Assembly (NCBI GenBank): GCA_043561795.1
Contig: CP121316.1
Coordinates: 754,061-818,060 of the forward strand
From: Paracoccaceae bacterium
GTDB lineage: Bacteria > Pseudomonadota > Alphaproteobacteria > Rhodobacterales > Rhodobacteraceae
Direction of reading: 5' to 3'
Length of the DNA: 64,000 nt
The notes beneath the pieces are model-generated. The model saw only the letters and a program-made list of their open reading frames with translations, was not told the DNA's origin and did no database searches. Shown piece by piece: positions 33,097 to 36,407 of the stretch. Position 1 is the first letter of the stretch. Every line of letters begins with the position of its first letter. The position numbers were made by a program, and so were the translations under genes.

Positions 33097-35034
33097 TCAA
33101 ATAACTGTAATACGATTTGCACGTTTGGAAAGTGCTTCCACACCGAGCGCTTGTAGCGCCGCTGTGGCAATGTGATCTGCCGTCAGTTCGGCATCATGAT
33201 ACATCTGTTCCGGGCTGCCTTGGTCTATGAACCTGTCCGGCAATGTCAGGGTGCGAATGGCAAGCCCATGCTGCAACAGCCCCGCATTGGCCATGTAATG
33301 CAGCACATGCGCGCCAAAGCCCCCCTGCGCGCCCTGCTCTATGGTAATCAGCGCCGCATGGTGGCGGGCAAGCTGGGCAATCAGATCGGTATCCAGCGGC
33401 TTGGCAAAGCGGGCATCGGCAATGGTGCAGGTAATGCCGCGCGCCTCCAGCGCCTCGGCGGCGCGCATGACCTCTGGCAAATGCGCGCCGAAAGACAAGA
33501 GCGCCACGCTCTCGCCCTCTTTCAGCACCCGGCCCTTGCCGATTTCCAGCACCTGCCCGCGTGCTGGCAGATCGACGCCAGACCCTTCGCCGCGCGGATA
33601 GCGAAAGGCAATCGGGCCGGCATCATGCGCCGCCGCTGTGGCAACCATATGCACAAGCTCTGCCTCATCGCCTGCGGCCATCACCACCATACCGGGCAGA
33701 TTGGCCAGAAAGGCCACATCAAAACTGCCCGCATGTGTGGCCCCATCCGCCCCCACCAGCCCCGCGCGATCTATGGCAAAGCGCACAGGCAGGCCCTGAA
33801 GGGCGACATCATGCACAATCTGATCATAACCCCGTTGCAGGAAGGTGGAATAAATCGCGCAAAAGGGTTTCAGCCCACTGGCGGCCATGCCTGCGGCAAA
33901 GGTGACGGCATGTTGTTCGGCAATGCCCACATCAAACACCCGGCGGGGAAAGCGCTGGCCCATGATATCTATGCCTGTGCCATTGGGCATGGCCGCACTT
34001 ACCGCCACGATCATCGGGTCGCGCGCGGCCTCATCCGTCAGGGCGCGGCCAAAGACAGAGGTATAGCTGGGCGCATTCGCCCGCCCCTTGCTTTGCGCGC
34101 CAGAGGCCACATCAAATTTTGAAACGCCGTGATATTTGCAATCGGCGGCCTCTGCGGGCGCATAGCCCTTGCCCTTCACAGTGCGCACATGGATCAGCAC
34201 CGGTCCTTCGGCGCGGGCATGGGCCATGCGCAGCGTGGCCAGCAGATCGGGCATGGAATGGCCATCAATCGGGCCGATATAGGTAAAGCCCAGATGCTCG
34301 AACATTGTGGCATCTGGCGGGCCGCCACAGGCGCGGGCGCGTGCCGCAAGGGCCTGTTCGCGCAGGGAATGGGGCAATGCCGCCATAAACCCCTGGGCAA
34401 TCTCTGACAGGCTGGCATGGGGCATGTTCAGCCGGTTCAGATAGGTATTCATCGCCCCCACCGGGGGCGCAATGGACATGTCATTGTCATTGAGGATCAC
34501 AAACAGCCGCCGCCCTTCGGCGCCTGCATTGTTCAGCGCTTCATAAGCCATGCCCGCACTGATCGAGCCATCGCCGATCACGGCAATTGCATCACCTGTG
34601 GGCTGGCCCATATCGCGGCCAATGGTAAAGCCCAGCGCCGCCGATATGCTGGTGGAACTATGCGCCGCGCCAAAGGGATCGAACACCGATTCACTGCGCT
34701 TGGTAAAGCCCGACAGCCCACCGGCCTGCCGCAGGCTTGGCATATGCTCGCGCCGCCCTGTCAAAATTTTATGGGGGTAGCACTGGTGCGATACATCCCA
34801 GATCAGTTTGTCAAACGGCGTGCGGAACACGGCATGCAAGGCCACTGTCAGTTCCACCACGCCAAGCGATGATCCCAGATGCCCGCCGGTGCGGCTGACG
34901 GTTTCTATCGTTTCGGCGCGCAGTTCCTGGGCCAGCGCGTCCAGTTCCAGATCACTCAGATCCCGCAGATCGGCAGGGCCTGCCACGCGATCCAGATGGG
35001 GGGTTTTTGACGGGGTGGGCTGTGTCGGTTGCAT
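33097..35034 (-). CDS. dxs: 1-deoxy-D-xylulose-5-phosphate synthase
   Basis: [29 protein letters not shown]...EALNN and [11 protein letters not shown] motifs; lies downstream of pufX as in Rhodobacter PGCs. Confidence 0.97.
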
Positions 35035-35038
35035 GGGC

Positions 35039-35228
35039 GTTCCCTTTCATTTTTTGATTTTGAACTGGCGCCCAAACGCAAAAAGGGTGCCGTGGGGCAG
35101 GCCCGCACGGCACCAGTTTCCTGTCGCCAACAGGAAAGGGAACCGGGCGTCACAAGCCCGCGTCCGAACCGGCTATATGGTTCGAACCCTTTTGGGGGCA
35201 GGCCGGCGGCAAAGCCGCCCTGCGCCCC
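35039..35228 (-). promoter_or_regulatory. Structured pufX-dxs intergenic leader with five hairpins, including a probable puf terminator (35080-35114)
   Basis: Minus strand GGTGCCGTG/CACGGCACC stem plus CTTTTT. Further stems at 35117-35137, 35144-35160, 35165-35184 and 35195-35228. 10-bp inverted repeat 35039-35048/35134-35143. Confidence 0.7.
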
Positions 35229-35236
35229 GATCCGTG

Positions 35237-35467
35237 TTACACTGTCGCCCAATCCAAAGGCGCTTCCAGCGCGCTATAGGGCATGGGCGGCGGTGCATTC
35301 TTGCTGTCGCTGGGCAGCATTTGCCCAACGCCCCAGATAATGGCGTAGAAGATGCCAATCGCCAGAAGGAACAAGGCCGCATATCCTGCACCGCGCAACA
35401 TCTCGGAGAGCACCCAGTTGCGCAGGCGCGCGGTGGGGCTTTCCTGGATATAGTCGTGTTCAACCAT
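35237..35467 (-). CDS. pufX: RC-LH1 core complex protein PufX
   Basis: 76 aa directly after pufM; single TM helix; EMLRGAGYAA and G..LP..SKNAP.P features. Confidence 0.8.
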   Translation of the reverse strand: MVEHDYIQESPTARLRNWVLSEMLRGAGYAALFLLAIGIFYAIIWGVGQMLPSDSKNAPPPMPYSALEAPLDWATV

Positions 35468-35480
35468 GGTCAGTCACTCC

Positions 35481-36407
35481 TTAATCATAGGTGGGACGGA
35501 AGCCGCGTTCCTCGGCCCAGATAGCCCAGTTATCGACCACAGTTCCTGTCAGCAGGATACCGATACCGCCTGTCAGCGTGGTGAGCACAGCAAACCACCA
35601 GGCCCAACGGTGAATCCCTTCCATTGTGGCATTGAAGCCCATCGTCCAGCGCCAGAACAAGGCGGCGCGTTCGGATGCCGTGCCCCGATCCACGATCTGT
35701 TCCAATTCACGGTCGCCACCGAAGCGCGAGACCGCCAGAATCGTGGCCCCATGCATGGCAAACAGCAAAGCAGAGCCATAGAGGAACACGATAGAGAGCG
35801 CATGGAACGGGTTGTAGAACAGGTTGCCATAACGCAGCGAGAACAGATTCGTCCAATCCAGATGGGTGAAGATGCCATAAGGCACAGCCTCTGACCACGA
35901 CCCCATCAAAACAGGACGGAACAGCCCCAGAACCAGAAACAGCCAGATGGCAGAAGCAAAAGCCCAGGCCACATGTTTGCCCATGCCCAGCGCTTCGGCG
36001 CGCAGATAGGTGCGTACCCACCATGTCATGACCGAAATCAGCAAGAAGAAAGAGGCAATCAGGAAATAGCCGCCCTCTCTCATGGGGGGGATGCCCAGAC
36101 CGTATTCAGGGCTTGGCGGATCCAGCGACAGCCAGAACAGATCACGCAGGAACACGGCCGGGTTATACCCTGCCTGATCCCAGAACCACAAACCCACCAT
36201 CACAAACCAGATCGCACCTGTGGCCAGCGAGATCACGCCCATGGTGCCAAGATAGATTGGCCCAAGCTGCGCATTGCCAAACCAGCCCAGCAGGTTGGAG
36301 AAGCTTGCAGATTTGGTGCGGTTGCCCAGCTCTACGCCTTCAACCAAGCCCATTTCCGGGGCGGCGCGCACCTGCACCTGTGTAAAGATATTCTGATACT
36401 CAGCCAT
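35481..36407 (-). CDS. pufM: Reaction centre M subunit
   Basis: [43 protein letters not shown] and EGIHRW motifs. Confidence 0.98.

Follow-up and report, generated by a model that had tools for sequence, protein, structure and literature searches.

The window, the whole 64,000-nt stretch of Paracoccaceae DNA analysed here, carries bchZ, pufQ, pufB, pufA, pufL, pufM, pufX and dxs in this order on its minus strand. Twenty congeneric species have a pufX homologue at the corresponding place. The region from pufM to dxs contains the following features.

36407-35481, minus strand: pufM
35467-35237, minus strand: pufX, 76 aa, the final gene of the puf operon (open reading frame (ORF) and translation)
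35236-35035, minus strand: pufX-dxs spacer, 202 nt
35228-35194, minus strand: hairpin 1, a long GC-rich stem-loop right 3′ of the pufX stop (minimum free energy (MFE) fold)
35187-35162, minus strand: hairpin 2, GUUCGAACC / GGUUCGGAC (MFE fold and covariation)
35160-35144, minus strand: hairpin 3, CGGGC / GCCCG (MFE fold and covariation)
35144-35120, minus strand: near-invariant block GGUUCCCUUUCCUGUUGGCGACAGG (invariant columns of alignment A1, 48 sequences)
35137-35117, minus strand: hairpin 4, UUUCCUGU/ACAGGAAA
35114-35086 (stem) and 35084-35080 (UUUUU), minus strand: hairpin 5 with its U-tract, the intrinsic terminator (MFE fold)
35079-35049, minus strand: variable post-terminator spacer with an A-run
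35048-35039, minus strand: dxs Shine-Dalgarno (SD) region GAAAGGGAAC
35034-33097, minus strand: dxs, 645 aa, the photosynthesis-cluster copy, with its ATG at 35034

The block at 35144-35120 contains a CU-rich, anti-SD-like stretch (35143-35134) and the core of hairpin 4. The GAAAGG within the dxs SD matches the 16S 3′ tail CCUCCUUUCU. A second, housekeeping dxs lies elsewhere in the genome, after ispA, and has GAAAGG as its SD but lacks the GGGAAC extension.

The MFE fold of 35240-35020 reached −108.2 kcal/mol (z = −4.6), and none of 200 shuffled sequences was equally stable. Agreeing with an earlier note on this DNA, the spacer folds into five hairpins, one of which is an intrinsic terminator. 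The fold additionally contains an 8-bp helix between anti-RBS and RBS, GUUCCCUU:AAGGGAAC, which forms the closing stem of a junction with hairpin 4 and the terminator inside. The terminator itself consists of a GC-rich hairpin followed by a U-tract at 35114-35080; a simple scanner missed it because the inner stem is bulged, and reported hairpin 3 with the CU stretch (35160-35134) instead. A promoter scan of 34500-36000, which includes the interval between terminator and dxs, detected no sigma-70-like promoter. The U-tract (35084-35079) can pair with the A-run at 35056-35051 (UUUUUG:CAAAAA in the MFE fold), and A-runs precede the dxs SD in most species of the genus.

The earlier note had read the spacer as a riboswitch-like leader in cis, in which a trigger would toggle the read-through RNA between hairpin 4 and a helix that blocks the dxs RBS. 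The pairing on which this reading was built is indeed there. On the minus strand, GUUCCCUUUC (35143-35134) is perfectly complementary over 10 nt to GAAAGGGAAC (35048-35039), the RBS stops 4 nt short of the ATG (35034), and the UUUCCUGU/ACAGGAAA hairpin competes for the 3′ part of the anti-RBS, so that the two folds compete. The perfect complementarity, the occurrence of the helix in the MFE fold and the mutual exclusivity of this helix with the outer pairs of hairpin 4 would all suit such a leader, but the two arms are separated by a terminator that looks efficient. A further pairing that the note had proposed, between the terminator 5′ arm AACUGGUGCC (35119-35110) and GGCGCCAGUU (35072-35063), can form in the window as 10 bp with one U-G; it is partly kept in the nearest relative and unconserved past it, and we treat it as incidental because it is kept only there.

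Partition-function folding gave the anti-RBS:RBS helix a probability of 0.01 to 0.76 in the window, depending on the modelled RNA ends, with the dxs SD 29-38% unpaired in every modelled construct. Both values count against a switching leader, although folding of this kind cannot decide the question because the helix probability swings with the construct ends. The mRNA strand of the spacer, scanned against Rfam 15 at E ≤ 10, matched no family and no TPP riboswitch, which bears out the note's remark that TPP-aptamer motifs are absent and also argues against a leader, as does the lack of an aptamer-like conserved junction. The sole Rfam match in the spacer, on its opposite strand, was a sub-threshold partial hit of 25 nt (E 2.4) to an sRNA family of Caulobacter.

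A conserved RNA family at the puf 3′ end

The same pufX-dxs arrangement was found in 20 species of the genus. Their spacers are strongly conserved over the initial 160 nt; past the terminator, lengths range from about 40 to 120 nt and the sequences are no longer alignable. Beyond the genus, a core, GCCCGGTTCCCTT(T)CCTGTTGGCKACAGG, together with the terminator is common to many genera, and includes a near-invariant block of 24-25 nt, GGUUCCCUU(U)CCUGUUGGCKACAGG. A pattern scan recovered the core in at least 119 species records, among them Cereibacter johrii, Tabrizicola, Gemmobacter, Rhodobaculum, Roseivivax and Marivita, as well as Tateyamaria, Shimia, Roseovarius, Planktomarina, Palleronia and Roseobacter. 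It lies 3′ of pufM in 168 of 168 loci, at a distance of 325-410 nt if pufX comes next after pufM. About 36 of these loci have a distance of ~1200-1475 nt instead, as would fit a pufC replacing pufX; that assignment is based on spacing. Across genera the RNA core is 90-97% identical, compared with 35-60% for PufX. The genome of the window contains the element once.

A covariance model (R1) was built from A1. A search of 100 non-redundant loci with R1 gave 48-109 bits in every one, including 95 bits for the window and 106 bits for C. johrii. Among 101 sequences, 24 of 30 base pairs had changed on both sides, comprising all 8 pairs of hairpin 2, all 4 of hairpin 3 and all 12 of the terminator. 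Paired cells amounted to 92.8%, against 44-48% when the partners were slid by 1-3 columns. Fitting the alignment to the model does bias it towards the structure, yet the slid controls and double changes are clear. Hairpin 1 keeps its position, and its stem sequence varies among relatives with, by eye, both arms changing in step.

The helix of hairpin 4 is unchanged in 100-101 of the 101 sequences, and the CU stretch is likewise sequence-invariant. This pattern, in which stem and loop of hairpin 4 are fixed and do not covary, raises the alternative that the block serves chiefly as a site for a protein or RNase (entry or cleavage by RNase E, or Hfq or CcaF1-type binding) that sets processing and stability of the puf 3′ end with no base pairing. 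Inside the puf-dxs loci the invariant block has no conserved target of at least 8 nt, at most 7 of 100 loci sharing a site, and this too is as expected of a protein site; so is the published statement that RNase E generates PcrX, a puf 3′ UTR sRNA of Rhodobacter sphaeroides, and that this sRNA requires Hfq (PMC9438474). In one divergent genome (G116), hairpin 4 has nevertheless retained its loop while both of its arms have changed, suggesting that its structure matters too. We consider a purely protein-directed block possible, though we would not favour it.

The G116 element (locus L194) lies ~60-150 nt after pufX and reads GGUUCCCUUUUCC, followed by a hairpin, CCCGC-GUGGCG-GCGGG, whose two arms both differ from CCUGU/ACAGG and whose loop is similar. 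It is the only hint of covariation for hairpin 4.

The block was also inspected by eye as a site at the DNA level. No conserved −10 was present at sigma-70 spacing. A sigma-54 GG/GC spacing fits the window only, the partner lying in the variable terminator stem, and the TGT-N5-ACA in the block is not the TGT-N12-ACA of PpsR. Because the flanking helices covary, the DNA-level reading was dropped for a role at the RNA level.

Relation of the element to PcrX and to dxs

PcrX is reportedly a 3′-UTR-derived sRNA of the R. sphaeroides puf operon, described by Eisenhardt et al. in 2018 (doi 10.1111/mmi.14076) and reviewed in PMC9438474. C. johrii, whose PufX we take to be close to that of R. sphaeroides, has a puf 3′ UTR of the same architecture as the window, with the dxsA ATG ~20 nt past the U-tract. 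The probe used to detect PcrX on Northern blots, AAGGGAACCGGGCTGTGGTGTG (PMC8307010 supplement), complements CACACCACAGCCCGGTTCCCTT, that is, the 3′ arm of hairpin 3 plus the CU stretch, and overlaps the core GCCCGGTTCCCTT. By position, the element of the window (35236-35080) lies on the same strand as pufX and directly after its stop at 35237. Given the architecture shared with C. johrii and the location of the PcrX probe on the core, the spacer is, as judged by sequence, the conserved 3′ UTR of the puf operon and a homologue of PcrX. The likeness extends to the position between pufX and dxs, the series of hairpins leading to an intrinsic terminator, and the core sequence; the CU stretch of the window differs by one extra U.

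In R. sphaeroides, PcrX is an RNase E-processed, Hfq-dependent sRNA of the puf 3′ UTR that destabilises pufLMX (PMC9438474, PMC8625941, PMC10064930). By analogy, RNase E processing, Hfq dependence and pufX targeting are putative properties of the RNA in the window. For pufX, an 8-nt complement, CAGGAAAG, to the element's CUUUCCUG was found at 35446-35439 (codons 8-10). The site is not conserved, close relatives carrying CAGGAGAC in place of CAGGAAAG. Moreover, pufX targeting cannot be the whole function of the element because the element occurs in lineages that, by spacing, have pufC and no pufX. A whole-length RNAduplex prediction of the sRNA against pufX was discarded as meaningless, since it ignores intramolecular structure.

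Loci in which puf and dxs are separated bear directly on the claim that the element is a leader of dxs. In one genome (G178, locus L202) an element scoring 63 bits immediately follows pufX, with a convergent NUDIX gene next in line. The single dxs of this genome is located 33 kb from there, and searching the entire genome with the model returned no further copy of the element. Similarly, element and terminator are intact in Palleronia caenipelagi (L092) and in a metagenome-assembled genome (L122), with no dxs downstream. Three more genomes without a downstream dxs, including G116, have degenerate CCGGUUYCCUUU-type stretches. Conversely, several pufC-dxs spacers do not contain the element. Because it is kept at the puf 3′ end in three species with no dxs downstream of it and is absent from some pufC-dxs spacers, the element is not a dxs leader by origin. 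With no match to an aptamer-like family either, the claim of a riboswitch-like dxs leader had to be given up for the element as a whole, and we rate such a switch as improbable for the window.

In the three loci L202, L092 and L122 the photosynthesis gene cluster is bordered differently. Convergent idi-like (NUDIX family in L202) and bchP-like genes lie farther downstream in each, and in L092 and L122 another ORF intervenes before them.

Leaders that sequester the SD with an anti-SD, and riboswitch platforms such as the TPP riboswitches of thiamine genes, resemble the window in that the CU stretch can pair with an SD and a local hairpin competes for part of it. They differ in that the element of the window has no aptamer or ligand logic and belongs to the upstream operon, and its pairing is confined to one genus.

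Pairing with the dxs start within and outside the genus

Within the genus, the CU stretch can form an unbroken run of at least 8 pairs with the start region of dxs in 20 of 20 species, and of at least 9 in 17. The pairing occurs in two registers, GGUUCCCUUUC:GAAAGGGAACC and, with G-U pairs, CCUUUCCUGUU:GGCAGGGAGGG, and most species of the genus keep the 10- to 11-mer at the dxs SD. Predicted duplex energies were −17 to −20 kcal/mol for the dxs start, compared with −11 for pufM and −7 for pufX, and predicted accessibility of the SD fell from 0.57 to 0.28 once the element was included. The extended complementarity in all 20 species, in either register, and the loss of accessibility are what the switching leader would predict for this genus.

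Outside the genus the picture is different. The longest contiguous Watson-Crick run had a median of 4 (6 with G-U allowed), which speaks against a general leader, and 11 pairs were reached by 1 of 117 species only. The dxs energy was ~−11 kcal/mol, equal to that of the pufA, pufM and pufX start regions, and in folded read-through leaders the expected number of SD:CU pairs had a median of 0.1. In C. johrii, the spacer forms 6 pairs, one of them G-U, with the dxs SD GGGAGG, as against 9-11 nt in the genus of the window. The complementarity behind the anti-RBS pairing of the earlier note is kept throughout the genus, with at least 8 pairs, and elsewhere does not rise above the level of an ordinary SD. 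The species of one genus are not independent, and true covariation of the SD helix cannot be scored because the anti-SD side never varies.

A match of this kind could be incidental: the CU-rich seed resembles the 16S anti-SD (CCUCCUUUCU) and would pair with any strong purine-rich SD, without any function. GAAAGG-type SDs are common, and the housekeeping dxs has one too. Genome-wide, 44 ORFs have a complement of at least 9 nt at the start region. The dxs start-region energy ranks only at about the 5th percentile under a lax ORF control, so that energy alone does not single dxs out; this modest rank arises because any purine-rich SD pairs with the CU-rich stretch. The equal pairing of dxs, pufA, pufM and pufX in other genera fits the incidental reading as well. 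A chance match accounts less readily for the rarity of the full-length complement. Counting ORFs of at least 100 aa, only 10 in the genome can form a Watson-Crick duplex of 10 nt or more with the motif just before the start, and the adjacent dxs is among them. The 10-mer itself occurs four times in the genome, one occurrence being the antisense strand of the element, and among gene starts only that of dxs has it. Nor would chance lead one to expect at least 9 pairs in 17 of 20 species of the genus when the surrounding spacer has diverged beyond alignment, or a second RBS type that keeps 11 pairs in the other register, a length so rare elsewhere. On balance, a functionless match is conceivable but somewhat doubtful.

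The 44 ORFs with a complement of at least 9 nt are candidate trans targets, and several carry (A)CAGGAAAGGG. Examples in the genome of the window (G000), with names judged from N-terminal residues alone, are ispG-like (C1:1490378), relA/spoT-like (581469), ssb-like (3390351) and nuoF-like (3314697) ORFs, and those at 2273975 and 2026738. Alphaproteobacterial trans-acting sRNAs with CU-rich anti-SD seeds include the AbcR-type RNAs and R. sphaeroides CcsR, which has CCUCCUCCC loops. The element of the window is similar in that its CU-rich stretch is partly unpaired and adjoins a hairpin and a terminator, and in the many SDs of the genome that are complementary to it; it differs in that its targets are putative only.

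Seven loci of the same genus (L006, L008, L009, L013, L018, L020 and L021) have ~70-100 nt of extra, mostly AT-rich sequence between the terminator and the dxs RBS. In L006, L009, L018 and L020 this stretch contains one or two CUUUUUUC...GAAAAAAG hairpins, and some of the seven have a second terminator-like GC hairpin with a T-run. The extra stretch, which the window does not have, could be a small inserted element or an added regulatory module.

Proposed mechanism and significance

The element thus consists of four conserved hairpins and an intrinsic terminator, with the CU-rich part of the block located just 5′ of hairpin 4 and partly inside it. Extrapolating from the R. sphaeroides literature, most puf transcripts would end at the terminator (35080), and the hairpins would protect and stabilise the mRNA 3′ end. 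RNase E may free a PcrX-like sRNA, with the CU stretch as its probable seed.

The dxs gene is probably expressed by read-through from puf, because there is no recognisable promoter in the ~45 nt past the terminator. Further reasons are the short distances from U-tract to dxs ATG, only 20-50 nt in many genera, and the absence of the U-tract in some species. Three loci of other genera (L077, L116 and L118) have a hairpin at the terminator position without a U-tract; their puf-dxs junction is probably free of intrinsic termination. In R. sphaeroides, dxsA was grouped with pufLMX under one PrrA-activated ChIP region (PMC4263372). A literature search for dxsA with pufX, or for the puf operon with dxs, found nothing. 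We infer terminator efficiency, processing sites and the origin of the dxs transcript.

Partial-attenuator terminators and the stabilising 3′ hairpins of Rhodobacter puf offer a further parallel, with a GC hairpin and U-tract upstream of a co-oriented gene that looks promoter-less and with several stable 3′ hairpins. In comparison with attenuators, read-through at the window is predicted, and some relatives do not have the U-tract.

In the genus of the window only, the CU stretch could dampen dxs translation, either in cis on the read-through transcript or in trans as the free sRNA; such genus-specific dampening is plausible from the sequence comparisons. Taken jointly, the observations are likely best explained by a PcrX-type, terminator-ended puf 3′ UTR, expression of dxs by read-through, and an add-on directed at dxs in this genus alone. 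The add-on in its specific form, a second job in which the CU stretch pairs over 9-11 nt with the dxs start and occludes the SD in cis or, by way of an abundant processed sRNA, in trans, is put forward tentatively. The dxs pairing would then be lineage-specific, and the conserved role of the element would be independent of dxs.

The window is, in its known part, another copy of the described sRNA-bearing puf 3′ UTR. Beyond the descriptions that we found, the comparison reveals that the element belongs to a covarying RNA family of deep conservation whose 24-25-nt block hardly varies. The family is present in at least 119 Rhodobacterales species records and absent from Rfam, and it extends to lineages without pufX, where spacing indicates pufC. 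The comparison further identifies one genus that has maintained an extended match to the dxs RBS, providing a testable hypothesis that links photosystem expression to the supply of isoprenoid precursors. If it is true, puf output would directly tune translation of DXS, the first enzyme of the MEP pathway, which supplies precursors of carotenoids and of the bacteriochlorophyll tail, and would form an incoherent feed-forward link from photosystem apoproteins to pigments.
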